Source: Acidobacteriota bacterium (GTDB taxonomy: Bacteria > Acidobacteriota > Polarisedimenticolia > Gp22-AA2). From it: a stretch of DNA of 64,000 nucleotides. The number at the start of each line of letters is the position of its first letter. Position 1 is the stretch's first letter. The notes beneath the pieces were generated by a model. That model had not been told where the DNA came from. It was given only the letters and a program-made list of their open reading frames with translations, and searched no databases. Positions 10,649-31,627 of the stretch are shown here, piece by piece. The translations under genes and the position numbers were made by a program. The stretch spans positions 65,904 through 129,903 of the forward strand of contig QHXX01000018.1 of NCBI GenBank assembly GCA_003223135.1, given 5' to 3'.

Positions 10649-12443
10649 CGGGGTCCTCCTCGGCGTCCGGCTCCTGCGTCTCCTTCGATTGCGATCCCAT
10701 CTCGGGATGGTCCTGCTCTTCGTGGAGGCTGCCGTAGATCGCCTCCCTGTACGCCCGCTCCTTCTCGAGATCTCCCAGGAGGAAGTGGACGTCGGACAGC
10801 TTCAGCATCAAGGCGGCGTCCGGCCCGCCCCGGCCCGCGCTCTCGCGGTAGCGGTCGAGGGCCCGGGCGTAGTCCTTTTCGAGAAATGCGGTGTCGCCCA
10901 GTCTCTCGAGCCAGGGGGAGGCCGGCAGGTTCATCGCCTTGAGGCGTAAGGCCATCCGCGTGGCGTAACGCCCGGCGTCGGAATAGGACTTCTTCGCGAG
11001 GAGGACGTAGAAGTACTCCTCAGGCAGAAGCGCTGTGTGGAGACAACTTTGCCAGTCGGCCGGGAAGCGCTTCCTGACCATGTCGAAGACCCGTCGGTCG
11101 AGGTCATTTGACAGGGCGACCAGGGCGCATTCCAGGCGCGGGTCGTCAGCGGCGCGCGCGGCGTGAGCGCGAAGAGGCCGCTCGGCGGCCCCGAGGTCGG
11201 AGCGAGCGAGGCCGATCATCGCCAGCAGGAGCGGAAGGCGCGGGTCGTCCTTCCAGGCGGCGTGTAGACCTGCCAGGCGGACATCGACCTGCTCCCACCG
11301 GCCCAGGGCCGCCAGCGACAGGACGGCGGATGCTTCGTACATCGTCCCGCCCGGGGCCCGCTCGATCGCCTTTGCGAACCGTTCGAGCGCCGCCTCGGCG
11401 TCGCCGCTCACGAGCGCCGAGCATCCGCCTTTCCAGAGAAGCACGGCTTGCAGCGCGCGGACCGATTCGGCGGTTCCCCCTCCGGGAATCGTGGCCGGAC
11501 GTCCATCGATCAGGTTCTCCAGAGTCGGCAGGAGCCCGTCTCGTTTCAGCGCCTCGATCGCGCCGAAGCCGAGGCCGAAATCCGAGAGGTCGATGACCGG
11601 GAGGCAGGCCGGCCTCGACTTGAGCAGCGCCTGGGCGTCGTTCCAGGTGTCGAAGAAAAGCTTGCGGCGTCCCGGGGCGACGAACGGACCGAGAGCGATC
11701 GGCTGATCGACAGTCAGCAGAATGTCGTCCACGTAGTAGTCGACGTTGGAGGTGTCGTGACCGTTGTCGCCAATGAATGAGAACTTGTCCACGGCCGACC
11801 CGGGCTCGTTGAAGGCGTTCGCCTGGGCCTTCAGGGCGACGACCGGGTCGTTCCTTCCCTCCTCGCGGATCGTCAGGTCGTACCTGCCCGCGGCGATGTC
11901 GTAGGCCACGTCCACCAGGTACCAGGAGAAGGACCTGATCTGAATGAGGCGCATCGGGATGCTGTCCGAGTACTGGCACAGCCAGCCGCCACGCGTCTGC
12001 AGCCAGAACGCCACGCCGTCCTTTTTCAGCGAGAACCACTGCGGGCCGGCCAGCGCGATGTTGAGCTGCTCGAGCGGGTCGGCCACCAGGAGGGCGAAGT
12101 GGGCGTAAAGCATGCCCGACTCGCGCCGAGGAAAATATCCCTGCAGCTCGGGGAAGTTGCCGTCATCGGCCACGTCTCGTATCTCGACCGAGCGGTACCC
12201 GCTGTAGCGAAAGGCCGTGGAGAGGTGAACGCGCCCCTTCGCCTTCTCGAACACGGCGAAGGCGTCAGGACCGGTGGCGAGGTTGGCGTCGTCGAATCCA
12301 TAGCTGACCAAAATGCCCGAGGCGGCGGTCGCCCCCTGGCCGTCATCGGCGGGTCGGGCGGCCGCGGCGAGAGCGGGCGCGACGGAGACGGTCAGCAGAA
12401 AAGACAGGGCGACGACGGGCGAGACGCGAGCCATCCAGGCCAT
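10632..12443 (-). CDS. Large secreted protein: N-terminal beta-rich domain + C-terminal TPR-like helical repeats + acidic tail
   Basis: Start chosen at MAWMARVSPVVALSFLLTVSVAPALAAA (signal peptide). The ORF's upstream Arg/Pro-rich extension to 12710 is rejected. Confidence 0.5.
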   Translation of the reverse strand: MAWMARVSPVVALSFLLTVSVAPALAAAARPADDGQGATAASGILVSYGFDDANLATGPDAFAVFEKAKGRVHLSTAFRYSGYRSVEIRDVADDGNFPELQGYFPRRESGMLYAHFALLVADPLEQLNIALAGPQWFSLKKDGVAFWLQTRGGWLCQYSDSIPMRLIQIRSFSWYLVDVAYDIAAGRYDLTIREEGRNDPVVALKAQANAFNEPGSAVDKFSFIGDNGHDTSNVDYYVDDILLTVDQPIALGPFVAPGRRKLFFDTWNDAQALLKSRPACLPVIDLSDFGLGFGAIEALKRDGLLPTLENLIDGRPATIPGGGTAESVRALQAVLLWKGGCSALVSGDAEAALERFAKAIERAPGGTMYEASAVLSLAALGRWEQVDVRLAGLHAAWKDDPRLPLLLAMIGLARSDLGAAERPLRAHAARAADDPRLECALVALSNDLDRRVFDMVRKRFPADWQSCLHTALLPEEYFYVLLAKKSYSDAGRYATRMALRLKAMNLPASPWLERLGDTAFLEKDYARALDRYRESAGRGGPDAALMLKLSDVHFLLGDLEKERAYREAIYGSLHEEQDHPEMGSQSKETQEPDAEEDPDADLD

Positions 12444-12576
12444 CCCTGCGAATCTAGGGCCCGGAGATCCGGCCGCGCAAGGCCGAATTCGGCGCGGGAC
12501 GAGGCTTACAGGAACGTCATCGCGACCCGTGCGGAGGGTTCCGGCGACACGCGGGTCGGACGGAGGACGACCCGGG

Positions 12577-13915
12577 CTAACGCCCCGGCACGCCCGCCGG
12601 CAGCGTCTGACCGATGAAGGCCTCGAGGTTGTCGAGGGCGCGACGGACGAGGAGGGCCTTCTTCTGTCTCTTGTCGCGGGTGTCGCGGTCGAGCGGCGGC
12701 AGGAGCCCAAAGGCGATGTTGGTCGGCTGGTAGTGAGCCGCGTCGGCGCAGGAGATGTACCGCGAAAGAGCCCCGAGGGCCGTCGTCGCCGGGAAGATCA
12801 AGGGTGGCTGGGTTTCCGCCAGGCGCGCCGCGTTGATGCCGGCGATGAGGCCGGAGGCGGCCGACTCGAGATACCCCTCGACACCGGAGATCTGGCCGGC
12901 AAAGAACAGGTCCCGCCGGCGACGGGCCTGGAAGGTCGGCAGGAGGATGGCCGGCGCGTTGATGTACGAGTTGCGGTGCACCTGGCCGAGGCGCGGAAAT
13001 TCCGCGCGCTCGAGGCCGGGGATCATCCGGAACACCCGGATCTGCTCGGCGAACTTGAGATGATTCTGGAAGCCGACCATCGAGTAGAAGTCGGCCGCCA
13101 GGTTGTCCTGCCGGAGTTGCACGACGGCGAACGGCTGTTTGCCTGTGCGAGGGTCGACGAGGCCGACCGGCTTCATCGGGCCGAATGCGAGCGTCTCACG
13201 GCCACGGCGGGCCATCTCCTCGATCGGCAGGCACCCCTCGAAGTAGAAGATCTCCTTCTCGAACTCGTGCGTCGGCGCCTCGGCCGCCCCCAGGAGGGCT
13301 TGGTGGAAGCGGTCGTACTCGGTCTCGGTGAGAGGGCAGTTGAGGTAATCCTCGCCCCCCTTGCCGTAGCGCGATGCCCGGAACACCTTCGACAGGTCGA
13401 TCGTGTCGGCATCCACGATGGGCGAGATCGCGTCGAAGAAGTAGAGGTATTCGCGTCCTGTGAAGCGGGCGATCGCGGACGCTATCGCCTCGCTGGCCAG
13501 GGGGCCAGTGCAAAGGACGCACGGCCCCTCGTCCGGGATCGCCCGGGCCTCTTCGCGCAGGACGCGCACCTGCGGGAGCGACTCAATCGCCTCGGTGACG
13601 CCGCGGGCGAAACGCTCGCGGTCGACCGCCAGAGCCCCGCCGGCGGGCACCCGGCACGCGTCGGCCACACGGATGATGAGCGAGTCGCAACGGCGCATCT
13701 CCTCCTTCAGGAGACCGGACGCCGTGTCAAGGAGGTTCGACTTCAGTGAGTTCGAGCAGACCAGCTCGGCCAGGTCGCCCGTCGCGTGGACCGGGGTCGT
13801 CCGAACCGGCCGCATCTCATGCAGATCGACGCGCAGGCCCCGGCGCGCCGCCTGCCAGGCGGCCTCCGACCCGGCCAAGCCGCCGCCGATGATGATGACG
13901 CGTGTTGTGGCCACG
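12577..13915 (-). CDS. trmFO: Methylenetetrahydrofolate--tRNA-(uracil-5-)-methyltransferase TrmFO
   Basis: FAD-binding TRVIIIGGGLAGSEAAWQAARRG, ELVCSNSLKSN, GQISGVEGYLESAASGLIAGINAA; start GTG (VATTRVIIIGGG). Confidence 0.85.
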
Positions 13916-14826: not shown

Positions 14827-15597
14827 ATGCGGCCCGCCGACCCGGCACCAGAGAACCCGATCGAACGATGGACGGGCGGGATCCGGAACGCGTTTCGCGA
14901 GGCAGGATGTCGGCCGCGCCCCGGCCTTCACGTCGGAGACGCACGGGTGATCCGGCGCCCCGCGGTCATCCTGCTCCTCGCAACGGCGCTTCTCACGGCC
15001 CTGGCTCCGGTCCCGGTGGCCGCCGGCGTCAGGTACGGCGACGCGGTTCCGGGAGTCATCCGTCCGTCCGACCTGGAGAGAATCAAGCGCGTCCTGCGAC
15101 TCGATCGCTTCTCGGTCATTGCGGCCGTCCGGCTGGGGGCGGAGGACGGACGCGAGGCGATTATCACCGAGCCTCTTTCGGACGAGACGCTTACGAAGGT
15201 GAAGGACGCGTGCGAAGCGGGCGGCTTCTGTCCCGACCCGGTCGGCTTCGTGGCCTCGCACGTCCTCATCGTTCTGCTCCGGGATGAAGACGTCGAGACG
15301 GTGGTCATGGTGCAGAGTGAGGCGCGCGGCCCGCGCGGCAGGCTGATCGATCTGCGCGACCTCGGGGTCGAGGGGGAGATCCTCGGCTGGAACGGCCGCG
15401 CCGATGCCGCCGACGGCCACGTTGCGCTCAGCCTGACCCCCATCACCACGACTCCGACCGGCAAGCTCGGCGCCGGGCTCGACCCGCCGCTCCTGATCCG
15501 CTTCAATTCGAAGCGCGATCGATTCCAGGTCTATGACTGCGTCGTGGGGGACGGCGGCGTGGCGATCTGCGAGTTCGAGGACGAGGCAGGAGATTGA
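14827..15597 (+). CDS. Hypothetical secreted protein
   Basis: Internal signal-like segment AVILLLATALLTALAPVPVAAG (possible start ~14940); no recognisable domain. Confidence 0.35.
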   Translation: MRPADPAPENPIERWTGGIRNAFREAGCRPRPGLHVGDARVIRRPAVILLLATALLTALAPVPVAAGVRYGDAVPGVIRPSDLERIKRVLRLDRFSVIAAVRLGAEDGREAIITEPLSDETLTKVKDACEAGGFCPDPVGFVASHVLIVLLRDEDVETVVMVQSEARGPRGRLIDLRDLGVEGEILGWNGRADAADGHVALSLTPITTTPTGKLGAGLDPPLLIRFNSKRDRFQVYDCVVGDGGVAICEFEDEAGD

Positions 15598-15610: not shown

Positions 15611-18085
15611 TCAGGAGTTGACGGCTTTCTTGAAGCCGCACCCTTCGTGGTCGCAGAAGAGCGTCGTCCCGTCCTTCTTGGTGATCTTCTCGAGGATGTA
15701 AGGGCTGCCGCACGACGGGCAGCGCTCGGCCACGGGCCGGTACCAGGTGACGAAGTCGCACTTCGGGTAGTTGTTGCAGCCGAAGAAGACGCGCCCGCGG
15801 CGGGAGCGGCGTTCGACGATACGGCCGCCGCAATTGTCGCGCGGGCAGTCAAGCCCCACTTCCTTCAGCTTGATGTACTTGCACTCGGGGTAGTTCGAGC
15901 AGGCCGTGAACTCGCCGAAGCGACCGTCCTTCACCGCCAGTGGCTTTCCGCACTGCGGGCACTTCTCGTCGAGGATCCGATCCGGCTTCTTCGTGACCGT
16001 GATCTTCCCTTCCTTGTCCATCGCGATCTTCTTCGTGTTGCGGCACTTCGGGTAGGCGGAGCAGGCGATGAACGGTCCGAAGCGACCCCTGCGCAGGACC
16101 ATCGGCGAGCCGCACTTCTCGCAGGTGCCGTGGTCCTCCGGGATGGCCGGGGACTCGGAGGCGGCGGCCCCCTGTGCTCCGCCCGGTTTAGCCCCGTTCC
16201 CGTTGCCCAAGACGACCGTCGCGATCTCCTGGGTGTTCTTGCACTCGGGGTAGCCTGAGCAGGCCATGAAGCGGCCGTACCGCCCCCACTTGATGACCAT
16301 CGGCTTGCCGCATTTCTCGCAGACCCGATCGGTCGGCTCTTCCATCTTCTTGATGTTTTCCATGTTGGCCGTGGCCGCCTTCAGGTCCTTGGCGAACTGC
16401 TTGTAGAACCCCTTCAGGGCGTCCACGTAGTCCAGCCGGCCCTCCTCGATCTCGTCGAGCTCTTCCTCCATGCGGGCCGTGTATTTGACGTCGAGGATGT
16501 CCTCGAAGTGCTGCACCAGGAGGTCGGTGACCGTCATGCCGAGCTCGGTCGGCACGAACTTCCCTTCCTGCTTCTCGACGTAGTCGCGCGACTGGATGGT
16601 GGCCAGGATGGTGGCGTAGGTCGACGGCCGGCCGATGCCGTTCTCCTCCAGCTCCTTGACCAGCGACGCTTCGGTGAACCGGGGCGGCGGCTGCGTGAAG
16701 TGCTGCTTCGGGTCGAGCTTCTGCAGCTTGAGCCGCTCGCCCTCGGCGAGCGGAGGCAGGGCGCGCGTCGCCTCGTCCTCTTCCTGGGCGTCGGGCGCGT
16801 CCTTCTTGGTCTTCTCGACGATGTCCTGGTAGACCGCGAGATAGCCTGGAAACTTCATGGTCGAGCCGGTGGCGCGGAACAGGCACCTGCCGGCGACGAT
16901 ATCGGCGGTGGTCACGTCGAACACCGCCGACTTCATCTGCGAGGCGACGAACCTGTTCCAGATCAGGCTGTAGAGTAGATATTCGTCCTTCTGGACATAT
17001 TTCTTGACCCGATCGGGCGTCAGCTCCATCGAGGTCGGGCGGATACCCTCGTGCGCCCCCTGCGTCATCTTGCCGGTCTTGTAGACGCGCGGCTCTTCGG
17101 GCAGGAACTCGGGGCCGTGCGCCTTGACGATGTAGTCGCGCACCTCCTGCAGAGCCTCGGGGGCGATGCGCGTCGAGTCGGTTCTCATGTAGGTGATGAG
17201 ACCGACGGTGCCGATCTCGCCGAGATCCATTCCCTCGTACAGGCGCTGCGCCAGGGTCATCGTCTTGCGCACGGTGAAGCCGAGCTTGCGCGAGGCGTCC
17301 TGCTGCAGCTTGCTGGTGATGAAAGGCGGGACCGGGTTCTTCTTCTTTTCCTTGGATTCGACCGAGCGGACGACGAAGGCGGCATCCTTCAGGGCGGTGA
17401 GGACGGCGTCCGTGTCCTCCTTGGACTTCAGGTCCGCCTTCTTGTCGTCCACCTTGAAGAGCCGCGCCTCGAACGGGGGCGGCTCCTTCGCCTCGAGGAA
17501 AGCGCCCAGCGTCCAGTACTCCTCCGGCTTGAACGCCTGGATCTCGCGCTCGCGCTCCACCACCATGCGGAGCGCCACCGACTGCACGCGACCGGCCGAG
17601 AGCCCGCGGCGGACCTTCTCCCACAGGAGCGGGCTGACCTTGTAGCCCACGAGCCGATCCAGGATGCGCCGCGCCTGCTGCGCGTCCACCTTGTTCGAGT
17701 CGATCTTCAGCGGATTCTGGATGCCGTGCAGCACCGCTCGCTTGGTGATCTCGTTGAACATCACGCGGTGCAGGTTCTTGTTCGTCTTCTTGAGGATCTC
17801 GGCCAGGTGCCAGCAAATCGCCTCCCCCTCGCGATCGGGGTCGGGGGCGAGAAAGACCTTATCGGCCGACTCCGCGGCCGCTTTCAAATCGTCGATGACC
17901 TTCTTGCGGCCCGGCAGGATCTCGTAGGTCGGCTTGAAGTCGTGCTTCTCGTCAACGCCCAGACGCTTCTTCGGCAGATCGCGCACGTGACCCATCGAGG
18001 CCTTGACGGTGAAGTTGCGACCGAGGAATTTGTTGATCGTCTTCGCCTTGGCCGGCGACTCGACGATGACCAGCGACTTGCCCAA
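15611..18085 (-). CDS. topA: DNA topoisomerase I with multiple C-terminal zinc-ribbon domains
   Basis: Toprim N-terminus MGKSLVIVESPAKAKTINKFLG, catalytic Tyr region, four C4 zinc ribbons (CEKCGKPM.., CPQCGKPL.., etc.). Confidence 0.9.
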   Translation of the reverse strand: MGKSLVIVESPAKAKTINKFLGRNFTVKASMGHVRDLPKKRLGVDEKHDFKPTYEILPGRKKVIDDLKAAAESADKVFLAPDPDREGEAICWHLAEILKKTNKNLHRVMFNEITKRAVLHGIQNPLKIDSNKVDAQQARRILDRLVGYKVSPLLWEKVRRGLSAGRVQSVALRMVVEREREIQAFKPEEYWTLGAFLEAKEPPPFEARLFKVDDKKADLKSKEDTDAVLTALKDAAFVVRSVESKEKKKNPVPPFITSKLQQDASRKLGFTVRKTMTLAQRLYEGMDLGEIGTVGLITYMRTDSTRIAPEALQEVRDYIVKAHGPEFLPEEPRVYKTGKMTQGAHEGIRPTSMELTPDRVKKYVQKDEYLLYSLIWNRFVASQMKSAVFDVTTADIVAGRCLFRATGSTMKFPGYLAVYQDIVEKTKKDAPDAQEEDEATRALPPLAEGERLKLQKLDPKQHFTQPPPRFTEASLVKELEENGIGRPSTYATILATIQSRDYVEKQEGKFVPTELGMTVTDLLVQHFEDILDVKYTARMEEELDEIEEGRLDYVDALKGFYKQFAKDLKAATANMENIKKMEEPTDRVCEKCGKPMVIKWGRYGRFMACSGYPECKNTQEIATVVLGNGNGAKPGGAQGAAASESPAIPEDHGTCEKCGSPMVLRRGRFGPFIACSAYPKCRNTKKIAMDKEGKITVTKKPDRILDEKCPQCGKPLAVKDGRFGEFTACSNYPECKYIKLKEVGLDCPRDNCGGRIVERRSRRGRVFFGCNNYPKCDFVTWYRPVAERCPSCGSPYILEKITKKDGTTLFCDHEGCGFKKAVNS

Positions 18086-18153
18086 GTGCTCTCCTCCGCC
18101 CGCCGCTGTGAACGCGGGCGGGCGTTGTTATCTTTTGAAAATAGTGGCAGCCG

Positions 18154-19344
18154 TCAAAATTTGCAAGCCGCCGACGTGAATCGGCGTCCCGGAAGCTGCC
18201 GGACGAGGCCCCGTAGTTCGAGTTCCAGGAGCACGGCCAGAAGCGTTCCGGGCGGAAGACCGCACGCCACGCCGAGTCTTTCGATGCCGATGCCGCGCGT
18301 CTTCGGCACGCGCGACAACACCCGCCGCTCCTCCGGCGTCAGCGCCTGAACGTCGCAGGGCACCGCCCCTGGGCCGGACAAAAGCGGCGCCGCGGAGGAC
18401 GCAACACCGGTGTCGCGCGGCCCCGCCACGCGCGTCCCGGCGAGCGAGCGCGCGGCATCGACGATCTGTGGCGCCAGATCCTCGACGACGTCCGCCGCGC
18501 AGCGGCAAACCAGAGCGCCTGAACGCAAGAGGCCATTCGTCCCCTCGGCGTTCGGCTCGTCGACGGGCCCCGGCACGGCGTAGACCGTGCGCCCTTCGTC
18601 GGCCGCCAGATCGGCGGTGATGAGCGATCCGCTGTCGCGCGCCGCCTCGACGACCACCGTGGCCCATGACAGCGTCGCGATCAGCCGGTTCCGCTCCGGG
18701 AAGTGGCGCTTAAGCGGAGCCGTCCCGCAGGGAAACTCGGTCACGACCGCGCCGCTCCCGGCGATCAATTCTGCGAGCCTGCGGTGCTCCACGGGATAGA
18801 CCCGATCGAGCCCCGAACCGAGAACCGCGATCGTGCGCCCACCGCCCTCGAGAGCGCCCTTGTGCCCGGCCGCATCGATGCCGCGCGCCAGCCCGCTCAC
18901 GATCGTGAAACCGGACGCCGCCAGCCCGCGCCCGATACCGCTCGCCACCTCGAGGCCGTGACGCGTCGCACGCCGAGAACCGACGACGGCGATCGCCAGG
19001 ACATCCTCGGGCCGCAGCTCGCCCCACACGTAAAGGACCCACGGCGGATCCGACGCGACGCGCAGCAGGCGTGGATAACTCTCGTCCTCGAGGGTCAGGA
19101 CCGTGGCGCCTTGCCGGCGGGCGCGATCCAGCTCGTCGAGCGCCGCCTCCTCCCACCCTGGATGCAGCTCGGAGGTCAATGGTTCCAGGAGAGAGGACCA
19201 GTCACGGGTGCCGCTACCGCGCAGAACCCCGCTGTTGAGCCGCTGCCGTCTGCCGGGGCTTGCGGCGAAGTGCATGTTCACTGCGGCCCAGAGTAAGGCC
19301 GAGCGGGACACCCGACCTCGCGACCGACGCGGGGAGACACGCAC
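18154..19344 (-). CDS. dprA: DNA processing protein DprA (Smf)
   Basis: Rossmann-like DprA core VVGSRRATRHGLEVASGIGRGLAASGFTIVSGLARGIDAAGHKGALEGGGRTIAVLGSGLDRVYP. Conserved dprA-topA order. Alternative start at 19275. Confidence 0.8.
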   Translation of the reverse strand: MRVSPRRSRGRVSRSALLWAAVNMHFAASPGRRQRLNSGVLRGSGTRDWSSLLEPLTSELHPGWEEAALDELDRARRQGATVLTLEDESYPRLLRVASDPPWVLYVWGELRPEDVLAIAVVGSRRATRHGLEVASGIGRGLAASGFTIVSGLARGIDAAGHKGALEGGGRTIAVLGSGLDRVYPVEHRRLAELIAGSGAVVTEFPCGTAPLKRHFPERNRLIATLSWATVVVEAARDSGSLITADLAADEGRTVYAVPGPVDEPNAEGTNGLLRSGALVCRCAADVVEDLAPQIVDAARSLAGTRVAGPRDTGVASSAAPLLSGPGAVPCDVQALTPEERRVLSRVPKTRGIGIERLGVACGLPPGTLLAVLLELELRGLVRQLPGRRFTSAACKF

Positions 19345-19499: not shown

Positions 19500-22388
19500 G
19501 TGACCTCGTCCGTCCTGCCGTCCGCGCGATCGTCGCACCATGCCGGGGCCTTCGTGCTTTGCGCCGCACTGCTCGGGATCGCGACCGTCCTGGGACTGGA
19601 GCGCTCACAGAATCGACCGAGGAGTTCACCGCCTTCGCCTGCCGGAGCGGATTACGATGAGGCCGTCCGACTCTATGTCGCCGGTCACTTCCAGGAGGCG
19701 CTCGAGGCGATCAACCGCGCGTCCGCTGCGGATGGATGGAGCGCTGCGCTGCGCGCGCTCGCCGGCTGGTGTCGTCTTCGGGCCGGCGCTCTGGCTGCGG
19801 CAGAGGCCGAGTTCCGCGCGGCGCTGAAGCTGGACGCGGGCGCCGTCGATCCACACGTGGGGCTGGGATACGTGCTGCTGCGCCGCGGTTCGTCGACGGA
19901 GGCGGAAGACCAGTTTCGTTTCGCCCTGCGCCGCGACGCCTCGAATCTCGACGCGCAGAAGGGGCTCGGTCTCGCGCTGCGTGACCAGAAGAAGTACTCT
20001 GACGCGACGCAGGCGTTTCGCGACGCGCTTCGCCTCAAGCCGGGCGATGCCGAGGCCGAGGGATTGCTGCAACAGGCGCTGGCCGCGGGAGACGGCGGCC
20101 GGGAGGAGCGGCCGCGCGGCCCGGCGACCGGCACGGCGATAAGGGTCGTCGCCCAGGCCAGGGACGGCAGGTTCTTCGTCCGGGAAGGCGGGCGCTTCCG
20201 GCCGCTGTTCGTGAAGGGAGTCAACATGGGGGTGGCGCTGCCGGGCCGCTTCCCCGCGGAATTCCCACCGGACGAGGCGACGTACCGCTCCTTCCTCTCG
20301 GCCATCGCCGGGATGGGCGCCAACGCGGTTCGCCTCTATACCCTTCTGCCCCCTTCGTTCTACGCAGCGCTGCGCCGGCACAACGACGCGGCCCGGTCGG
20401 CACCGCTCTGGCTCCTGCAGGGGATATGGACCGAGCCGCCGGCAGGCGATGACTACGACGGCGACGTGTTCGTCCGGCAATTCCGAGGCGAGATCCGGCG
20501 GGTCATCGACGCGGTGCACGGCAATCTCGACCTCGAGGCGCGGCCGGGTCATGCTTCGGGCATGTACCGGGCCGATATTTCGCCGCATGTCCTCGGTTAC
20601 ATTCTGGGCCGGGAGTGGGAGCCGCTGTCGGTTCGAACCTATGACGGCTGGTTCGCCAAAGGGCACAGAGAATCGTTCGCGGGTGCGTATTTCACGGCGC
20701 GCCTCGAGGATGGCGCCACGCCGTTCGAGCAGTGGCTGGCCCGGACCATGGACTTCGCCGTCGAATACGAGACCGGGGACTACCGCCAGCAGCGCCCGAT
20801 CTCGTTCGTCAACTGGCCCACGCTCGACCCGCTGCGACATCCGACCGAATCGACGGCCCCCGAGGAGGGAGCCTTCCTGCGCGCGATGGGCGAGGAGGAG
20901 ACGGCCGAGATGATCGAGGAGTACGGTGAGTGCGAGGATTGTGTCGGGGTGGACGCAGCGCGCATCGTCCCGACGCCCGACGCGCGGGGCGGTATCTTCG
21001 CGACCTACCACGCTTATCCTTATTACCCCGACTTCATGAATCTCGACCCCGGCTACAGCAGGGCGCGCGACTCGAAGGGTCCGAGCAACTTCATCGGGTA
21101 CCTGCGAGATCTCAAGACCCACCACGGCGCCCAGCCGGTGCTCATCGGCGAGACCGGGGTTCCGAGCAGCCGCGGCATTGCGCATCTCCAGCCTCAGGGG
21201 TGGAACCACGGCGGCCACACCGAGCGCGCGCAGGGGGAGATCGATGCCCGGCTGATGATGGATATCGACGAGGCGGGCCTGGCGGGCGGGGTGTTATTCG
21301 CCCTCCTCGACGAGTGGTTCAAGAGGAACTGGATGGTGTTCGATTTCGAAGTGCCGGCCGAGCGCAAGCCCCTCTGGCTCAATGTCCTCGACCCCGAAGA
21401 GAACTACGGTCTTCTGGCTGCGCGGCCGGGTGCCACGAGTTGGAAGGTGAAAGTCGACGGACGGGCGGAGGACTGGAACGGTGTGGCGCCGTTGGTGACA
21501 CGGCCCGAGGGCGGGCCGGAACGGCCGTTCAAGGACGGCTACGACCGGGCCCGCACGCTGCGAGGACTGGCGGTGACGTCGGACGAAGCCTACCTCTATA
21601 TCCGCCTCGATGTGGACCGGCTCGACGCCGACGGCGACGGCGCCCCCGACTGGGGAAAGGTGGCCTACCTCATCGGCATCGACACCTACGATGCACGGCG
21701 GGGGGATCACAGGTTGCCCATCACCGACAAGGCCGTCTCTCCCGCGGGCCTGGAGTTCTGCCTCGTCCTGGATGGCGCCGCCACGTCGAGACTCCTCGTC
21801 GATACCCCTTACGACCTCCAGACAAAGCGCCATCACCGTCCCTACGGTTCGGTCGAGAACGCCGACGGCCGCTTCATGGAGATCAAGGTCGAGACGAACC
21901 GCAGGCGCGTCGGACGCGACGGCACCGTCTACCCTGCCCAGCAGTCGAGCCGCTCACAGCTCATCCACGGCTCGATGGACCGGCGCGACCGGGACAGTTC
22001 GACGCTGACCGACTGGGCCGCCCGGACCGACTCGAACACCATCGAGATCCGCCTCGGCTGGGGGCTCCTGAACGTCACCGACCCGTCCTCCCGCTCTGTC
22101 CTGAGCGACGATCCGGACAATCTGAAGAACGTCGGCTGCACAAGAACCGCCGGCTTCCGCTTCTACGCCGCGGCGATCAAACCCGAAGGCGCCGCCGGAG
22201 GCCGGACGCCGATCGAGGCCCGGCTCGCCGATCGGCTGCCGCCGGGCGACCTCGCGCAACCGTCCGACCTGCCGATGTACGCCTGGCGCGGCTGGGACGA
22301 GCCGACGTACCACATCGAGAAGAAGGAGGGCTGGAGTATCTTGAAGCGGGCCTTCGAGGCGCTGCCGGCACACCGGGAGGCACCGTGA
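19500..22388 (+). CDS. TPR-repeat protein fused to a TIM-barrel glycoside-hydrolase-like domain (clan GH-A-like); putative EPS hydrolase
   Basis: N-terminal hydrophobic segment + ~4 TPRs. Then FVKGVNMGVALPG (GH5-like beta1), AGMGANAVRLY (like GFNxVR), GREWEP (possible acid/base), VLIGETGVPS (GExG nucleophile-like). Lies immediately upstream of the PgaA-like exporter. Confidence 0.55.
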   Translation: MTSSVLPSARSSHHAGAFVLCAALLGIATVLGLERSQNRPRSSPPSPAGADYDEAVRLYVAGHFQEALEAINRASAADGWSAALRALAGWCRLRAGALAAAEAEFRAALKLDAGAVDPHVGLGYVLLRRGSSTEAEDQFRFALRRDASNLDAQKGLGLALRDQKKYSDATQAFRDALRLKPGDAEAEGLLQQALAAGDGGREERPRGPATGTAIRVVAQARDGRFFVREGGRFRPLFVKGVNMGVALPGRFPAEFPPDEATYRSFLSAIAGMGANAVRLYTLLPPSFYAALRRHNDAARSAPLWLLQGIWTEPPAGDDYDGDVFVRQFRGEIRRVIDAVHGNLDLEARPGHASGMYRADISPHVLGYILGREWEPLSVRTYDGWFAKGHRESFAGAYFTARLEDGATPFEQWLARTMDFAVEYETGDYRQQRPISFVNWPTLDPLRHPTESTAPEEGAFLRAMGEEETAEMIEEYGECEDCVGVDAARIVPTPDARGGIFATYHAYPYYPDFMNLDPGYSRARDSKGPSNFIGYLRDLKTHHGAQPVLIGETGVPSSRGIAHLQPQGWNHGGHTERAQGEIDARLMMDIDEAGLAGGVLFALLDEWFKRNWMVFDFEVPAERKPLWLNVLDPEENYGLLAARPGATSWKVKVDGRAEDWNGVAPLVTRPEGGPERPFKDGYDRARTLRGLAVTSDEAYLYIRLDVDRLDADGDGAPDWGKVAYLIGIDTYDARRGDHRLPITDKAVSPAGLEFCLVLDGAATSRLLVDTPYDLQTKRHHRPYGSVENADGRFMEIKVETNRRRVGRDGTVYPAQQSSRSQLIHGSMDRRDRDSSTLTDWAARTDSNTIEIRLGWGLLNVTDPSSRSVLSDDPDNLKNVGCTRTAGFRFYAAAIKPEGAAGGRTPIEARLADRLPPGDLAQPSDLPMYAWRGWDEPTYHIEKKEGWSILKRAFEALPAHREAP

Positions 22389-24121
22389 GCCGCAGCCGGC
22401 GTCTGGTCGCGATCGTTGCCGTCGGCCTCGCCGTGTTCGCCGCTGCGGTCCTTCCGGCGGGGGCGGCGCCCCCGGCCGCCCGGGAGCGGGACACAACGCA
22501 GACGCCCGCTTCGGGCGCTCCGGTCGGGCGGCCGGTGGCCGACATCGTGAAGGAGGCGGACGCCGCCTTCGCGCGGGAGGACTTCAAGCAGGCGAAGGTC
22601 CTCTACGAGGAGGCGGCTCGCCTCGAGCCCGGCCACGTCCGCGCCCTGCATCGCCTCGCCCTCCTGCAGTCGTGGGACGGAGAACTCCGGGCGTCGGCCG
22701 ACAACTACCGCCGCGCCCTGGCTTTGGCGCCGGACGACTTCGACATAGAGCTCGGTCTCGCCCGGGTGCTGTCGTGGACGCACGAGTTCGGGGAGGCGTG
22801 CGTTCTCTACAGGAAGCTGCGCGAGAAACACCCGGACGACGCGCGCGTCCTCCTCGGTCTCGGAAACACACTGTCGTGGGCGGGCCGCTACGCCGAGGCC
22901 GACGAGGTCTTCAATGACATGGAGGCCCGCAAGATCGAGCCGATCCAGGCGCACGCCGGCCGGGCGCGCCTGCGCGGCTGGCAGGGGAAGCTCGACGAGG
23001 CGGCGCACTTCTGGCGCGACGTGCTGCGCGCGGATCCCGGCAACCTCGAGGCACGCATCGGTCTGGCGTACGTGCACCACTGGCAGGGACTCGATCGCAC
23101 GGCGCGCGAGCAGGCCGACAACATCGTCATCGACCACCCGGAGAGCAAGGAGGCGCGGGAGTTGAAGGAGGCGGTGCGGAAGGGACTGCGGCCGCACGCG
23201 GACGCGGACGCGTTCCGCTACAGCGACACCGACTCCAACCGGGTGGATGGCGGCACGGCGTCGTACACCTTCATGGCCGAGCCGCAGACCTCGATCAGGA
23301 TCGCCTACTCGACCTACGACGCGACGTTCCGCTGCGAGGACGCGCAGTTCTGCGATGAGCCGGGCCTCGCCGTCGGAGATGAGATCGACACGCGCGCGCA
23401 GGTCCTGACCGGTGCTTTGACGTCGCGCGTGATCTCCCCGCTGACCTTCAACGCCCGTCTGGGCGCGGTGCGGGAGGGGACCTTCGGCGGGGACACGCGC
23501 GTCGTCGGGGTCCTCGGCGGCTACCTCCGCTGGCAGGTCGGCCCGAGGTTCGCCCTCGGCACGAACGGCGGCCGGGACGTGTTCCTCGACACCGCCCCCC
23601 TCATCGACCGCGGCATCCGCATCACGGACGCCAATGCCCGCGTGGAGTTCCGTTTCAACCCGGCCTGGCTGCTCTCGGGCAGCGCCGGGGCGGCGTCGTT
23701 TTCCGACGGCAACGCGCGCCGCACGGCCGGGGCTGCGATCGAATGGCGTCTGCCGACGACGCACCCGTGGATCGCGGGCACGGTCGACGTCCGATACCGG
23801 TCGTTCAACGCCGACGAGGACAACGGCTACTTCGACCCGCGGCGCTACGACTCGGAGCTCCTGACCCTGGCGGTCTGGGACGACTACCGTGACGGCCTGC
23901 TCTACTGGAGGCTCGAGGGCACGTATGGACGGCAAGCCTTCACCGTCGGCGCGGTGAAACGCGACGACGCGGTGAGCGGCGGGTCCGTCCTCGCGGGCGT
24001 CAACTTCGCGCAGGGCAGGGCAGCTCTCGAGGCTTCGTACGCCCGCAGCGACTACGCGCTCAATGTCGCGCAGGGATTCACGTACAGCCGGACAGGGTTT
24101 TCCCTGCGGTTCCGGTTCTGA
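22385..24121 (+). CDS. PgaA/BcsC/PelB-like outer-membrane exporter: N-terminal TPR domain + C-terminal beta-barrel
   Basis: GTG start overlaps upstream stop (GTGA). Signal peptide LVAIVAVGLAVFAAAVLPAGA, TPRs, C-terminal alternating hydrophobic beta-strands ending ...FSLRFRF (terminal Phe). Confidence 0.55.
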   Translation: MSRSRRLVAIVAVGLAVFAAAVLPAGAAPPAARERDTTQTPASGAPVGRPVADIVKEADAAFAREDFKQAKVLYEEAARLEPGHVRALHRLALLQSWDGELRASADNYRRALALAPDDFDIELGLARVLSWTHEFGEACVLYRKLREKHPDDARVLLGLGNTLSWAGRYAEADEVFNDMEARKIEPIQAHAGRARLRGWQGKLDEAAHFWRDVLRADPGNLEARIGLAYVHHWQGLDRTAREQADNIVIDHPESKEARELKEAVRKGLRPHADADAFRYSDTDSNRVDGGTASYTFMAEPQTSIRIAYSTYDATFRCEDAQFCDEPGLAVGDEIDTRAQVLTGALTSRVISPLTFNARLGAVREGTFGGDTRVVGVLGGYLRWQVGPRFALGTNGGRDVFLDTAPLIDRGIRITDANARVEFRFNPAWLLSGSAGAASFSDGNARRTAGAAIEWRLPTTHPWIAGTVDVRYRSFNADEDNGYFDPRRYDSELLTLAVWDDYRDGLLYWRLEGTYGRQAFTVGAVKRDDAVSGGSVLAGVNFAQGRAALEASYARSDYALNVAQGFTYSRTGFSLRFRF

Positions 24122-24155
24122 GGCGCGGTTCTTTGCTCGCGCCGCGCAGCGAGGG

Positions 24156-24545
24156 GTGACGGCCGTGGCGGAGCAGGCCCGAATCCTGATCGCGGACGGC
24201 GACGCGCCCGTGCGACGCTTCGTGGCCGCGCTTCTCGTCCACGGAGGATACGAGGTGCATGAGGCCGCGGACGGCGAGTCGGCGCTTCAAAAGGCGGTGT
24301 CGCTCGCGCCGCGACTGCTGGTCCTGGACATCGTGCTGCCGGGGAAGGACGGTTTCGAGGTCATCAACTCGCTCAAGTCGAACCCGGCGACCTCCCGCCT
24401 GCCGATTCTGGTGCTGTCGGTGAAGGATCGCGAGGAGGATGTGGTGAAGGCGCTCGACCTCGGCGCCGAGGACTACGTCATCAAGCCGTTCAGCCCCCGC
24501 GAGCTCCAGGCGCGCATCCGCAAGATTCTCGAAAGGAGCCGGTGA
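24156..24545 (+). CDS. Stand-alone response-regulator receiver (REC, CheY-like) protein
   Basis: ILIADGD, phospho-acceptor context LLVLDIVLPGKDGFEV, LPILVLSVKD, AEDYVIKPF; no output domain. The ORF track starts at 24063, which overlaps the upstream gene. Confidence 0.75.
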   Translation: MTAVAEQARILIADGDAPVRRFVAALLVHGGYEVHEAADGESALQKAVSLAPRLLVLDIVLPGKDGFEVINSLKSNPATSRLPILVLSVKDREEDVVKALDLGAEDYVIKPFSPRELQARIRKILERSR

Positions 24546-24549
24546 CGCC

Positions 24550-25824
24550 GTGGATCCGGTGCGCCTTCTGATGGTCGAGGTGGTCGAGGGAGTCGGGGTC
24601 TTCCTCGCCCTTCTCACCTTTGCGATCGTCATCAACAAGGCGCTCCGCGAGGTGGGCGAGGCCCTCGACAGACACCGGCGCACGCTCATCGAGCCGGCCG
24701 TCTTCGAGTACCTCGGCGCCGCGTCCTCCAGGCCGCAGCGCGACGCCCTCCCGCGATCGTCGTCGCGCCGCGACCGGCGCCTGGTGGAGGAGTTCCTTCT
24801 CGAGGCGGCGCGCGTCGTGAAGGGGGAAACGCGCGACCGGGTGACCGCCGCCTTCGAGGCGCTCGGCTCGGTGCGCGAGGCGATCCGCGCTCTGCACAGC
24901 CGCCGCTGGTGGAAGCGCGCCGAGGCAGCCGAGAGGCTCGGGCTGATGCGAAGCCGCACGGCCGTCGCGCCGCTCGTGGCCCTGATGAGCGATCCGGAGG
25001 CGGAGGTGCGCATCCGCGCGGCCCGCGCCCTGGGTCTCGTTCGCGGAAGCACGTCGATCAGACCGCTCGTATCGGCCCTCGCGGACCCGAGCCGCTGGTC
25101 GGCGATCCGCGTCGCCGAGATTCTGATCAACGTCGGCGTCGAGGCGGTGGACGAGCTCCTCGTGGCCTATGAGACGTTGCCGCTTAACGCCCGAGTCTCC
25201 GCCCTCGACGTTCTGGGGCGCATCCGGAGTCTCAGGGCTGTCGGGCTGATGAAACAGTGTCTTTCGGACGCACACCCGGACATCCGGGCTCGCGCGGCGC
25301 ACGGGCTCGGCCTCATCGGCGATCCTGGCACCGCCCCCGACCTGATTCGCGCCCTCCGGGACACGGAGTGGCCGCCGCGCGCGATGGCGGCCAAATCGCT
25401 CGGCCGCCTCCGAGACCCTGCAGCCATAGGACCGCTGCGCGAGTCGATGAGGGACCGGCAGTGGTGGGTGCGTTACAACTCCGGCGAGGCGCTCCGGGCC
25501 CTCGGCCCCGAAGGTCTGGAGGCGCTGATCGACATGTTGAGCTCCGACGATCCGTACGCCCGTCACATGGCGGTGGCGCAGCTCGAAGAAGGCCGGGTCA
25601 TCGACCACTTTGTCGCGGACCTGACCTCGAACGACGCCGGCAAGCGCGCCGCGGCGATCCGCTTCGTCGACAAAGTAACCGCCGCCGCCCGCATCGACGA
25701 TACGACCCGGCAGGCGGCCAGAAGCGCCCAGGAAGGCGTGCGCCACGCGCTGTCCAACATCCTGAAAACGCCGTCGCCGGCACCTGCGTCCTCACCCGGC
25801 AAGGGGGACGGAGGACGTTCGTGA
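24550..25824 (+). CDS. Membrane-anchored HEAT/PBS-lyase-like repeat protein
   Basis: One N-terminal TM helix (GVGVFLALLTFAIVI), then >=6 HEAT-like repeats (EVRIRAARALGLV, WSAIRVAEILINVG, PDIRARAAHGLGLIGDP, WPPRAMAAKSLGRLRDP, WWVRYNSGEALRALG). Confidence 0.55.
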   Translation: MDPVRLLMVEVVEGVGVFLALLTFAIVINKALREVGEALDRHRRTLIEPAVFEYLGAASSRPQRDALPRSSSRRDRRLVEEFLLEAARVVKGETRDRVTAAFEALGSVREAIRALHSRRWWKRAEAAERLGLMRSRTAVAPLVALMSDPEAEVRIRAARALGLVRGSTSIRPLVSALADPSRWSAIRVAEILINVGVEAVDELLVAYETLPLNARVSALDVLGRIRSLRAVGLMKQCLSDAHPDIRARAAHGLGLIGDPGTAPDLIRALRDTEWPPRAMAAKSLGRLRDPAAIGPLRESMRDRQWWVRYNSGEALRALGPEGLEALIDMLSSDDPYARHMAVAQLEEGRVIDHFVADLTSNDAGKRAAAIRFVDKVTAAARIDDTTRQAARSAQEGVRHALSNILKTPSPAPASSPGKGDGGRS

Positions 25825-25852
25825 CCGGTCGCCGAGCCGCCGGTGGGCCACC

Positions 25853-27295
25853 ATGACCTGGATGTCCGTCCTGATCACAATCGTCCTCGCCTTCAACCGC
25901 TGGGTGATCTTCTACTTCGGCCTCCTGAACGGCGTCTATCTCTTGCTGTTCCTGGTGTCGTTCGTGGAGGTCCTGCGCTTCGTCAAGCGGACGTTCTTCT
26001 CCGACTACGAGCAAATCTTGAAGTCGGAGATGACCTGGCCCATCTCAATGATCGTCCCCGCCTACAACGAAGCGCGCAACATCGTCGAGACCGTGCGGTC
26101 GCTTCTCGCGGTGAACTATGGTCAGTTCGAGGTCGTCGTGGTGAACGATGGGTCCAACGACGGCACGCTCGAGCGCCTCATTTCGACCTTCGAGCTGAAG
26201 CGCACCGACCGCATCTACCGCCGCACGCTGCCGACCGGTCCCGTGCGCGGCATCTACGCCTCGCTCGAACATCCGAATCTCAGCGTCGTGGACAAGGAGT
26301 GGGGCGGCAAGGCCGAGGCGCTCAACTGCGGGATCAATGTGTCGCGCTACCCCCTGTTCTGCTCGGTCGATGCCGATTCGATCATGGAGGACAATGCGCT
26401 CCTGCGAGTGGTGAAGCCGTTCATGGAGCACCCCCAGGAGATGGTCGCCGCCGGCGGTATCGTTCGCATCGTCAATGGCTGCGAGGTGCGCGAAGGCCGG
26501 GTCGTGCGCATCGGCCTGCCGAAGAAGCCCTTGCCTGTCTTCCAGGTCGTCGAATATCTGAGAGCGTTCCTGGGAGGGCGCATCGGATGGAGCAGCCTGC
26601 GGTCGCTGCTCATCATCTCTGGCGCGTTCGGTCTGTACCGCAAGTCGGTGGTGATCGCCGCCGGAGGCTACGACAGCTGGTCGGAAACCGAGGACCTCGA
26701 GCTCGTCCTGAAGCTCCACGAGCACATGCGCAGGACCGGCCGCAAGTACCGCATCGTCTTCGTCCCCGACCCCGTATGCTGGACCGAGGTCCCGTCGACC
26801 TTTCGTGTCCTGGCTCGCCAGCGCAACCGCTGGCACCGCGGCCTGCTCCAGAGCCTGTGGCGCCACAAGCACATGATCTTCAACCCCGAGTACGGCGCCA
26901 TCGGCATGCTCGGGCTGCCCTACTTTCTTGTCTTCGAGTCCCTCGGCCCCTTCATTGAAATTCTCGGCTACATCACGGTCGCGCTCTCGTATTGGCTCGG
27001 CGTCCTGAACATCGATTTCTTCGTTCTCTTCCTAATCTTCGCCGTCTTCTTCGGGGTCTTCCTGTCCGTCGCCGCCGTGCTCCTGGAGGAGGTCTCCTTC
27101 CGCCGCTATCCCGGCTGGGAACACCTCGCCAGGCTCGTCTTCTACGGTGTCCTCGAAAACTTCGGCTACCGCCAGATCCTGGCCATCTTCAAGGTGAAAG
27201 CCTTCTGGGACTTTCTGCGGCGCCGTCGCGCCTGGGGCCGGATGGAGCGCGAGGGGTTCCGGGCGGGACCGGCGTCGCCGACCCTTCGGACCTAG
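25853..27295 (+). CDS. Processive family-2 glycosyltransferase, PgaC/IcaA/HmsR-like EPS synthase
   Basis: 2 N-terminal TMs, GT-A domain (VVNDGSNDGT; DAD in SVDADS), processive motif QRNRWHRG (QxxRW), C-terminal TM cluster; ~480 aa, no PilZ domain. Confidence 0.75.
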   Translation: MTWMSVLITIVLAFNRWVIFYFGLLNGVYLLLFLVSFVEVLRFVKRTFFSDYEQILKSEMTWPISMIVPAYNEARNIVETVRSLLAVNYGQFEVVVVNDGSNDGTLERLISTFELKRTDRIYRRTLPTGPVRGIYASLEHPNLSVVDKEWGGKAEALNCGINVSRYPLFCSVDADSIMEDNALLRVVKPFMEHPQEMVAAGGIVRIVNGCEVREGRVVRIGLPKKPLPVFQVVEYLRAFLGGRIGWSSLRSLLIISGAFGLYRKSVVIAAGGYDSWSETEDLELVLKLHEHMRRTGRKYRIVFVPDPVCWTEVPSTFRVLARQRNRWHRGLLQSLWRHKHMIFNPEYGAIGMLGLPYFLVFESLGPFIEILGYITVALSYWLGVLNIDFFVLFLIFAVFFGVFLSVAAVLLEEVSFRRYPGWEHLARLVFYGVLENFGYRQILAIFKVKAFWDFLRRRRAWGRMEREGFRAGPASPTLRT

Positions 27296-31080: not shown

Positions 31081-31627
31081 CTCGTCCTATCCCTCGAGGC
31101 GGGGTCAACGGCCAGAGAGTGGCGAGGATCATATCGCCACCGGGAGGCACGGTCAAGAAAAGCCTTCCGGGACGGGTCAAAGTCCGGCCAGCCGGGCCGC
31201 ATCCGACTGCACAGACTCGCAACATGCCTCGGGCAATTCCGAACGACGGGTGGACACGTCTAGTAAAGCTATTGTTCTCATACACATAGTATATGCCATG
31301 AGCTCCCACTGACGAAAACCTGGGCAGTTGGTGTGCGAGAGCTGGTCACTCCGACGGGGGACTCGCAGAGCATCAGGCCGCACCGGACAAGATTGATCTG
31401 CCCTGATCATCCATCGCAATAATCAGGAAATGAGCTAGTTAGGAAATCATGAGCAGGCTTGTACAGGGGTGCCGGACGGGATGGCACCACCCTTGCTCTT
31501 ATTGAAGCGACCAGTCGTGAAGGCCAAACCACTCGCGAGGGTGGGACGGAAAGCCAACGGGTCTCTTGAAGACGGCCGGGTTGCCAGCTGGGCGGCTCAA
31601 ACCGCCCGCTGTCGGTCAGGAGGCGCC

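Follow-up and report, generated by a model that had tools for sequence, protein, structure and literature searches.

A putative periplasmic polymer-processing enzyme with TPRs, a clan GH-A-like barrel and a CBM-like domain in a Pga-like exopolysaccharide operon of Acidobacteriota and other phyla

The locus and the 962-residue protein

The stretch of DNA considered here, referred to as the window, comprises 64,000 nucleotides of the contig QHXX01000018.1 from an Acidobacteriota bacterium of the Polarisedimenticolia, and contains on its + strand a tight operon of five genes (19500-27295) whose junctions are overlapping or short. The first of these genes encodes a protein of 962 residues, the main subject of this report, in which tetratricopeptide repeats (TPRs) precede a domain resembling the glycoside hydrolases (GHs) of clan GH-A and a domain resembling carbohydrate-binding modules (CBMs), and which probably acts on an exopolysaccharide (EPS) during its secretion. 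An initial annotation of this gene had described a periplasmic TPR domain fused to a TIM-barrel of clan GH-A type with a candidate pair of catalytic glutamates. The TPRs and the barrel were correctly identified, whereas the C-terminal domain of 330 residues and the response-regulator gene of the operon were missed, and the HEAT-repeat and family 2 glycosyltransferase (GT2) genes went unmentioned. The features of the gene are the following (window positions; aa, amino acid residues):

19500..22388, + strand: whole gene, TPR / GH-A-like barrel / CBM-like protein of 962 aa (open reading frame, translation, GC content at third codon positions, homologues)
19548..19598, + strand: hydrophobic N-terminal segment, signal peptide or signal anchor, aa 17-33 (read from sequence)
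19647..20075, + strand: TPR region of ~4 repeats, aa ~50-192 (Pfam TPR_16, TPR_1 and TPR_19; NCBIfam TPR-only)
20139..21317, + strand: N-terminal β-hairpin and (β/α)8 barrel, clan GH-A-like, aa ~214-606 (AlphaFold2 with DSSP, Foldseek, hhalign to a β-glucuronidase profile)
20607..20624, + strand: GREWEP after strand 4, with E372 as probable acid/base and E374 as alternative
21138..21167, + strand: VLIGETGVPS on strand 7, with E551 as probable nucleophile
21309..21332, + strand: DEWFKRNW after strand 8, aa 604-611 (conservation)
21399..22385, + strand: CBM9/CBM74-like β-sandwich of ~330 aa, aa ~634-962 (AlphaFold2, Foldseek, profile match)

The open reading frame starts with GTG and runs for 962 codons, and its GC content at third codon positions (0.83) is in line with that of the real genes of the window, whose overall GC content is ~68%. 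More than 120 full-length homologues were found, with identities between 42 and 99%. An open reading frame of 1063 codons in another frame (20930-24121, + strand) overlaps the gene and is real only from 22385 onward, where it encodes the porin described below; its 5' part was rejected as a gene, being an open-frame artefact of high GC.

The TPRs, predicted by the initial annotation to number about four, are the sole Pfam and NCBIfam matches in the whole protein (aa ~52-192). Since residues 17-33 are hydrophobic and homologues devoid of TPRs start with signal peptides or lipoboxes, a periplasmic location of the protein is a reasonable inference from the sequences.

Fold of the central domain

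When residues 205-962 were modelled with AlphaFold2 from an alignment with 48 homologues (construct number plus 204 gives the full-length residue), the resulting model had a mean predicted local distance difference test score (pLDDT) of 89.8 and a predicted template modelling score of 0.92, and the only low-confidence stretch was found just after the barrel (construct 402-423). DSSP assigned to this model an N-terminal β-hairpin followed by eight β-α units and a β-rich C-terminal domain, the barrel strands 1 to 8 occupying construct residues 34-38, 72-75, 100-105, 160-165, 230-234, 297-300, 343-348 and 392-395. A Foldseek comparison with the PDB gave 184 matches at E ≤ 1e-3, and all 50 of those listed are clan GH-A enzymes: the endo-β-1,3-glucanase LaGH157 of family GH157 comes first (E 2e-11), followed by GH2 β-glucuronidases and galacturonidases, a GH5 mannosidase, lichenase and endoglucanases, GH1 β-glucosidases and the GH72 enzyme Gel4, at a sequence identity of ~12% to the listed neighbours. 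The central domain is, according to this model, a (β/α)8 barrel of the clan GH-A type, and this outcome agrees with the hydrolase-like TIM-barrel proposed by the initial annotation, which would have been refuted by a fold other than a TIM-barrel or a hydrolase.

When considered from the point of view of sequence, the protein stands apart from the described families. Pfam searches with 14 members of the family returned TPRs only, and the 758 residues of the window protein outside the TPRs (aa 205-962) matched no Pfam family at E ≤ 10, Cellulase (PF00150, GH5) included. The PDB sequences were likewise searched with phmmer, without a match to the 962-residue protein at E ≤ 10, and with the family profile, which yielded only a weak match to CBM9; neither phmmer nor the family profile detected the GH157 sequence 9g5g at E ≤ 10, so that the likeness to GH157 is structural only. 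The domain had been judged from its motifs to be neither CE4 nor GH8, GH114 or GH153 and possibly to represent a new hydrolase family, and both statements hold as far as these Pfam, NCBIfam and PDB sequence searches show, together with the lack of similarity to PgaB reported below.

The C-terminal domain

A separate AlphaFold2 model of residues 628-962 reached a pLDDT of 92.6 and, when submitted to Foldseek, retrieved the large starch-binding CBM74 of Sas6 (7uww, E 2.4e-4), the glucodextranase 1ug9 and the CBM9 structures 1i82 and 7nwn (E 1.4e-2 for CBM9). These matches are weak, with E values ranging from 2.4e-4 to 4e-2 and TM scores of ~0.25-0.4. The family profile also matched CBM9 1i82 (E 0.024) over the pattern 'DG..D.W ... 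DeaYLY', and it is these two motifs, 'DG..D.W' and 'DeaYLY', that the window domain has in common with CBM9 in the profile alignment. Pfam gave no CBM9 match to aa 205-962 at E ≤ 10. Identification of the domain as a polysaccharide-binding β-sandwich is thus moderately supported by model and profile.

Candidate catalytic residues and conserved motifs

Four motifs had been quoted as GH5-like landmarks, and all of them are present where they had been placed: VKGVNMGVALPG at aa 238-249, GMGANAVRLY at aa 271-280, GREWEP at aa 370-375 and VLIGETGVPS at aa 547-556, which the DSSP assignment maps to barrel strands 1, 2, 4 and 7, respectively. Conservation was counted in a local alignment of ~270 family members obtained by a word-indexed search and an exhaustive profile search. 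As G240, N242, R278, E372, E551 and G553 are each retained in at least 96% of these relatives, the four motifs are not there by chance. Both candidate glutamates are conserved in the homologues, E551, within strand 7 (construct 343-348), in 268 of 272 and E372, after strand 4, in 264 of 269, and the same is true for R278 on strand 2 (263/267), for H504 and Y506 of an H-x-Y element on strand 6 (261/272 and 267/272) and for the glycine following the candidate nucleophile on strand 7 (G553, 272/272). More variable are Q307 on strand 3, which is Gln in 225 and His in 42 of 268 sequences, R371, directly before E372, which is Arg in 224 of 269 and otherwise mainly Ile, Thr or His, and E374, also after strand 4, conserved in 228 of 270 and replaced by Asp (18), Leu (6) or Ser (6). 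No motif of the family is more invariant than DEWFK(R/K)NW after strand 8, which is also its strongest signature: D604 and W606 are found in 270 of 270 members each and K608 in 263 of 270. This motif might act as a lid or make contact with a partner or with the membrane.

Enzymes of GH5 and of clan GH-A in general present a pattern of Arg, His, Asn-Glu, His-x-Tyr, Glu and Trp on strands 2, 3, 4, 6, 7 and 8. Six of the eight residues of this signature occur in order in the window protein (R278, E372, H504, Y506, E551 and W606), placed by strand order and not by superposition, whereas the other two differ, the strand-3 His being Gln (His in the 42 of 268 relatives mentioned above) and the strand-4 Asn being Arg.

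For a comparison with a characterized enzyme, E. coli β-glucuronidase (GUS, uidA) was used, whose known acid/base is E413 (ANEP) and whose known nucleophile is E504 (ITEYG); both motifs are present in the uidA sequence as checked. In hhalign the family profile gave 5% probability against the single GUS sequence and an uninformative result in global mode; a GUS profile of 121 sequences was matched through the pre-barrel hairpin, 'GVN' of strand 1, 'GAN.vR' of strand 2 and 'RPv.f.N' of strand 5. In this alignment 'PVLIGETGVPS' lies with high local confidence on 'PIIITEYGVDT', so that E551 corresponds to GUS E504, as expected from the earlier reading of VLIGETGVPS as the nucleophile motif. A hairpin is inserted ahead of strand 4 in the family, and E372 is found three residues past the end of that strand (V-L-G-Y-I-L / G-R-E), which is the spacing of E413 in GUS (V-V-M-W-S-I / A-N-E413). 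Because of this GUS-like spacing and its higher conservation, E372 is a better candidate for the acid/base than E374. The proposal that GREWEP provides an NEP-like acid/base is therefore retained for the presence of a glutamate, namely the first one, E372, and amended in two respects, as the glutamate of 'WEP', E374, is less likely and an Arg takes the place of the Asn. On the basis of model and alignment, E551 is the probable nucleophile and E372 the probable acid/base, with E374 as the alternative.

These residues also bear on a different explanation of the protein, according to which it would be a periplasmic chaperone or scaffold lacking catalysis, whose barrel groove and CBM-like domain bind the nascent chain and pass it to the porin, the glutamates serving for binding only. 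TPRs and a CBM-like domain are well suited to binding and docking, the canonical Asn-Glu is changed to Arg-Glu, and the C-terminal domain of PgaB was long taken for a binding module (PMC5933820). However, that very domain was later found to be active (PMC5933820), and R278, E372, H504, Y506 and E551 are near-invariant over ~270 divergent members from many phyla, which is what is expected of selection on catalysis. A purely structural role is accordingly regarded as improbable, and an enzyme as the better description of the protein.

Organization of the operon

The four genes that follow in the operon are:

22385..24121, + strand: TPR and PgaA-like β-barrel outer-membrane porin (Pfam TPRs; PgaA_barrel PF21197, 3.5e-5; TIGR03939 PgaA, 1.9e-22)
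24156..24545, + strand: single-domain response regulator, start approximate (Pfam Response_reg, 5.4e-25)
24550..25824, + strand: HEAT-repeat protein with one N-terminal transmembrane helix (Pfam HEAT_2, 3.5e-32; helix read from sequence)
25853..27295, + strand: membrane-embedded processive GT2 synthase, PgaC/NodC/chitin-synthase-like (Pfam GT2 families; TED and QRNRW motifs, flanking transmembrane helices)

The porin gene, whose start at 22385 overlaps the stop codon of the 962-residue protein gene (GTGA), is the exporter beside which the protein had been placed by the initial annotation; its product has no significant BLASTP match to E. coli PgaA. The best named match of the GT2 is TIGR03937 PgaC_IcaA (3e-36), and since this score is far below the PgaC equivalog cutoff, the synthase, 25% identical to E. 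coli PgaC (E 6e-24), is not considered a PgaC orthologue. No co-subunit binding cyclic di-GMP (c-di-GMP) of the PgaD, PilZ, Alg44 or PelD type was detected in the operon.

The response-regulator gene, between the porin and HEAT genes, occupies the same position in the close relatives L004, L005 and L009, and together with the GGDEF-response regulator of locus L003 it hints, as far as gene content can tell, at control of the synthase by a phosphorelay or c-di-GMP. As for the HEAT protein, its gene always directly precedes that of the GT2, whether the version of the locus is Gram-negative or Gram-positive (24550-25824 in the window, 7470-8525 in L003). The protein could represent a novel type of synthase co-subunit that takes the place of PgaD or PilZ-type partners.

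The operon is flanked by unrelated genes, with dprA and topA on one side and genes for a Mur-ligase-like protein and an MFS transporter on the other. In the window (15611-19344, - strand) and in the Acidobacteriota relatives L001, L004, L005, L006, L007, L009 and L017, the operon lies beside dprA, and beside topA as well where checked; a conserved chromosomal position of this kind suggests that the operon was inherited vertically and does not belong to a mobile island. Two further features of the window were recorded. An open reading frame of 256 aa with gene-like third-position GC content (14827-15597, + strand) has no Pfam or NCBIfam match, and L004 has a Pfam-negative gene of 218 aa in that place. 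A subtilisin-like S8 peptidase of 720 aa (31469-33631, + strand), whose best named match is type VII secretion mycosin (4.9e-39, below cutoff), is unrelated to the operon.

Distribution, gene linkage and fusions of the family

The exhaustive profile search retrieved 2020 cluster representatives (50% identity) at E ≤ 1e-3, of which 827 at E ≤ 1e-30, and a genome scan with the pattern DEWFK(R/K)NW placed a family gene in at least 579 species-representative genomes from at least eight phyla including Firmicutes. Carriers comprise Acidobacteriota (Polarisedimenticolia and Holophagae), many Gemmatimonadota, Nitrospirota, Eisenbacteria, Vulcanimicrobiota, Actinomycetota, Geobacteraceae and other Desulfobacterota, one cyanobacterium, Thermus arciformis and the Firmicutes Gorillibacterium and Brassicibacter; the isolate Geothrix paludis SG195 (Holophagae) holds the full operon. 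The names given to these proteins in the sources are all 'tetratricopeptide repeat protein' or 'hypothetical protein', save for one CE4 fusion named after its deacetylase half.

Linkage was assessed in 38 loci in which the family gene has at least 8 kb of sequence on either side. The porin gene is its direct neighbour in 33 of them, and within 10 kb there is a related GT2 gene in 20 and a gene for a detectable HEAT protein in 13. The order of the genes varies: in L001 the porin, response regulator, HEAT and GT2 genes precede that of the enzyme, whereas Gorillibacterium (L003), an organism lacking an outer membrane, has them in the order GGDEF regulator, HEAT, GT2 and enzyme. In four loci, from Nitrospirota, Deferrimicrobium and some others (L032, L060, L064 at 12424-12822, and L082), a gene resembling those of carbohydrate esterase family 4 (CE4) deacetylases separates the family gene from that of the porin. 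The resulting order HEAT-GT2-enzyme-CE4-porin is like the logic of pgaABCD.

The same partners are found as parts of family members. A C-terminal CE4 deacetylase is fused in 9 of 46 long members, a GT2 is fused N-terminally in P0203, HEAT repeats are present in two members, and P0126 and eight more long members carry TPR extensions of the porin type.

These associations bear on a further alternative, namely that the protein is a catabolic glycanase for an exogenous β-glycan (laminarin, mannan or a cellulose-like polymer) which is encoded beside EPS genes by accident. The nearest structures are indeed those of catabolic enzymes, including the GH157 laminarinase, GH5 and GH2, and copies in Thermus and Cyanosarcina are orphans. 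Against this, the porin gene is adjacent in most of the well-flanked loci counted above and its start codon overlaps the preceding stop in the window, relatives are combined with GT2, CE4 and porin-type TPRs, and the operon contains no genes for sugar uptake or utilisation. Owing to linkage and fusions, a catabolic function is rated the least likely of all explanations, with very little probability left to it, and a function in EPS production is preferred.

Interpretation

In the reading that we consider best supported, to which a probability of about 0.62 is assigned, the 962-residue protein is a periplasmic polymer-processing enzyme, more precisely a retaining endo-β-glycanase, of a Pga-like synthase-dependent EPS secretion system. 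The membrane GT2 synthase would make and translocate a β-linked polysaccharide, probably rich in N-acetylhexosamine, with the HEAT protein and the response regulator probably assisting or regulating it; the polymer would then cross the periplasm and exit via the TPR/β-barrel porin. The hydrophobic segment at the N-terminus of the 962-residue protein would keep it in the periplasm, the TPRs would dock to the porin or to other partners, and the CBM9/CBM74-like domain would hold the chain while the barrel cleaves internal β-glycosidic bonds by a retaining double displacement, with E551 as nucleophile and E372 as acid/base. The chemistry of clan GH-A and that of an inverting GT2 both predict a β-linked polymer. 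The recurrent CE4 partners of the relatives are the reason to think of N-acetylhexosamine, which they suggest for at least part of the family. It is from fold, conservation, linkage and fusions that we infer catalysis, stereochemistry, substrate, topology and protein contacts.

Several observations weigh against this reading. At the level of the active site, an Arg (R371) is found where enzymes of clan GH-A have an Asn before the acid/base, and the motif DEWFK(R/K)NW falls, from W606 onward, in the low-confidence stretch of the model. The hhalign probability of the family profile against the 121-sequence GUS profile is as low as 27.6%; strand 4 remained unaligned in that run and an hhalign run restricted to it gave an uninformative 0.24%, and since strand 4 could not be aligned to GUS, the acid/base assignment is drawn from strand order and conservation alone. 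The lack of a match to any known GH family in the Pfam, NCBIfam and PDB sequence searches likewise counts here. At the level of the system, the inference of N-acetylhexosamine comes from relatives, the window itself containing no CE4 deacetylase by tblastn (E ≤ 1), and the orphan copies of Thermus arciformis (L084, 9281-11965) and Cyanosarcina radialis (L010, 9545-12184) have no EPS genes nearby, whether porin, GT2 or HEAT.

The Thermus arciformis copy adjoins a MurJ gene and a LytR-CpsA-Psr gene, a neighbourhood that could point to a role with cell-wall glycopolymers in some lineages and that also fits another view of the barrel. According to the latter, the barrel would be a retaining transglycosylase that branches, elongates or cross-links the exported polymer or attaches it to a different glycan of the envelope. 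With β-1,3-glucan, reactions of this type are carried out in fungi by GH72 Gel and GH17 enzymes, and Gel4 is among the structural neighbours; in addition, the retaining GH-A mechanism permits transglycosylation, and the CBM-like domain, which is large, could serve to hold an acceptor. On the other side, the closest structural neighbours, GH157, GH2 and GH5, are hydrolases, and BcsZ, PelA and AlgL are hydrolases or lyases at the same step of synthase-dependent systems. The known systems of this type use hydrolases or lyases here, as is also the case for PgaB (PMC5933820) and CcsZ (PMC7710045). Hydrolase and transglycosylase activities are not told apart by sequence; on balance, transglycosylation is thought unlikely, ranking ahead of the scaffold and catabolic explanations, and a hydrolytic endo-β-glycanase is favoured.

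A broader proposal, which is tentative and placed somewhat short of even odds, extends this reading from the protein to the system. It would be a widespread and hitherto unrecognized synthase-dependent EPS system distinct from Pga, Bcs, Pel and Alg, composed of a HEAT protein, a GT2 and the GH-A/CBM enzyme, with or without porin, CE4 and response regulator or GGDEF protein, and found in Acidobacteriota, Gemmatimonadota, Nitrospirota, Eisenbacteria, Desulfobacterota and Firmicutes. Its polymer would be β-linked and probably based on N-acetylhexosamine, and its enzyme would constitute a new clan GH-A family in CAZy with an unusual Arg-Glu acid/base motif.

Significance

To our knowledge, the only synthase-dependent EPS systems understood in molecular detail are those for alginate, cellulose, poly-N-acetylglucosamine (PNAG) and Pel, known almost entirely from Proteobacteria and a few Firmicutes. 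The locus points to an additional system of this kind, dominant in little-studied phyla of soil and sediment (Acidobacteriota, Gemmatimonadota and Nitrospirota), from habitats in which matrix polymers influence how soil aggregates and retains carbon. A family of ~2000 clusters has been hidden under TPR and hypothetical names, and once its activity is defined, the glycoside hydrolases would gain a further family. Knowledge of the activity would also reveal the polymer, since a hydrolase associated with a synthase acts specifically on what that synthase makes, as CcsZ showed, and would supply a matrix-degrading enzyme for the carrier organisms. The pair formed by the HEAT protein and the response regulator may represent a new mode of GT2 synthase control. 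Cultured carriers are available in Geothrix paludis SG195, Thermus arciformis and Gorillibacterium.

Comparison with known systems

The best structural match, LaGH157 (PDB 9g5g, 9g4n and 9fz9), is aligned over ~759 columns of the two-domain model. In comparison with LaGH157, to which its identity is ~12%, the window protein has additional TPRs, a much larger CBM9/74-like domain and an Arg instead of the Asn before the acid/base, and it is encoded in a biosynthetic, not a catabolic, gene context.

In the PNAG system encoded by pgaABCD, PgaB combines a CE4 deacetylase with a GH153 domain (PMC5933820), and PgaA is the TPR porin (PMC9384988). The window protein resembles PgaB in its position in the operon, as the presumed periplasmic enzyme that modifies or cleaves the polymer on its way from a PgaC-like GT2 to a PgaA-like porin, and its relatives, when fused to or followed by CE4, reproduce the domain logic of PgaB. 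Homology to PgaB was nevertheless rejected, as BLASTP against E. coli PgaB gave E 0.42 and Pfam no match (Polysacc_deac_1 included); its structural neighbours are all of clan GH-A, with no GH153 chain among the matches listed. The operon also differs from the Pga system in the presence of the HEAT protein and the response regulator, with no PgaD detected, and in that both enzyme and porin carry TPRs.

A parallel closer in fold is provided by CcsZ, the GH5 endoglucanase that replaces the non-homologous GH8 enzyme BcsZ in the clostridial cellulose synthase operon (PMC7710045). Like CcsZ, the window protein would be a clan GH-A barrel acting as synthase-associated glycanase of an EPS operon, GH5 enzymes are among its structural neighbours, and it contains the GH5-like R...E...HxY...E...W signature. 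Unlike CcsZ, it is associated with a PgaC-like and not a BcsA-like synthase, and carries the extra TPR and CBM-like domains. The best-supported reading by analogy is thus that the protein is a non-homologous analogue of PgaB, BcsZ and PelA, closest in fold to CcsZ. A link to the ydaJKLMN products of B. subtilis, where YdaN follows a GT2, was considered as well and set aside without a sequence comparison; YdaL is deacetylase-like and YdaN BcsB-like. A paper on these products (PMC13274460) is silent on their domains.

A literature search within one collection of papers found no description of this operon type or enzyme family. However, 'novel pga organisations' without detectable pgaB and pgaD have been reported in environmental bacteria (PMC7112194), and these may be loci of the type described here. 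In general terms, EPS pathways that depend on a synthase and include a periplasmic glycanase are a kind of system already known; what appears to be new, judging from sequence comparisons, are variations on it, namely the enzyme family (with respect to Pfam, NCBIfam and PDB sequences) with its Arg-Glu motif and CBM-like domain, and the partnership with a HEAT protein and a response regulator.

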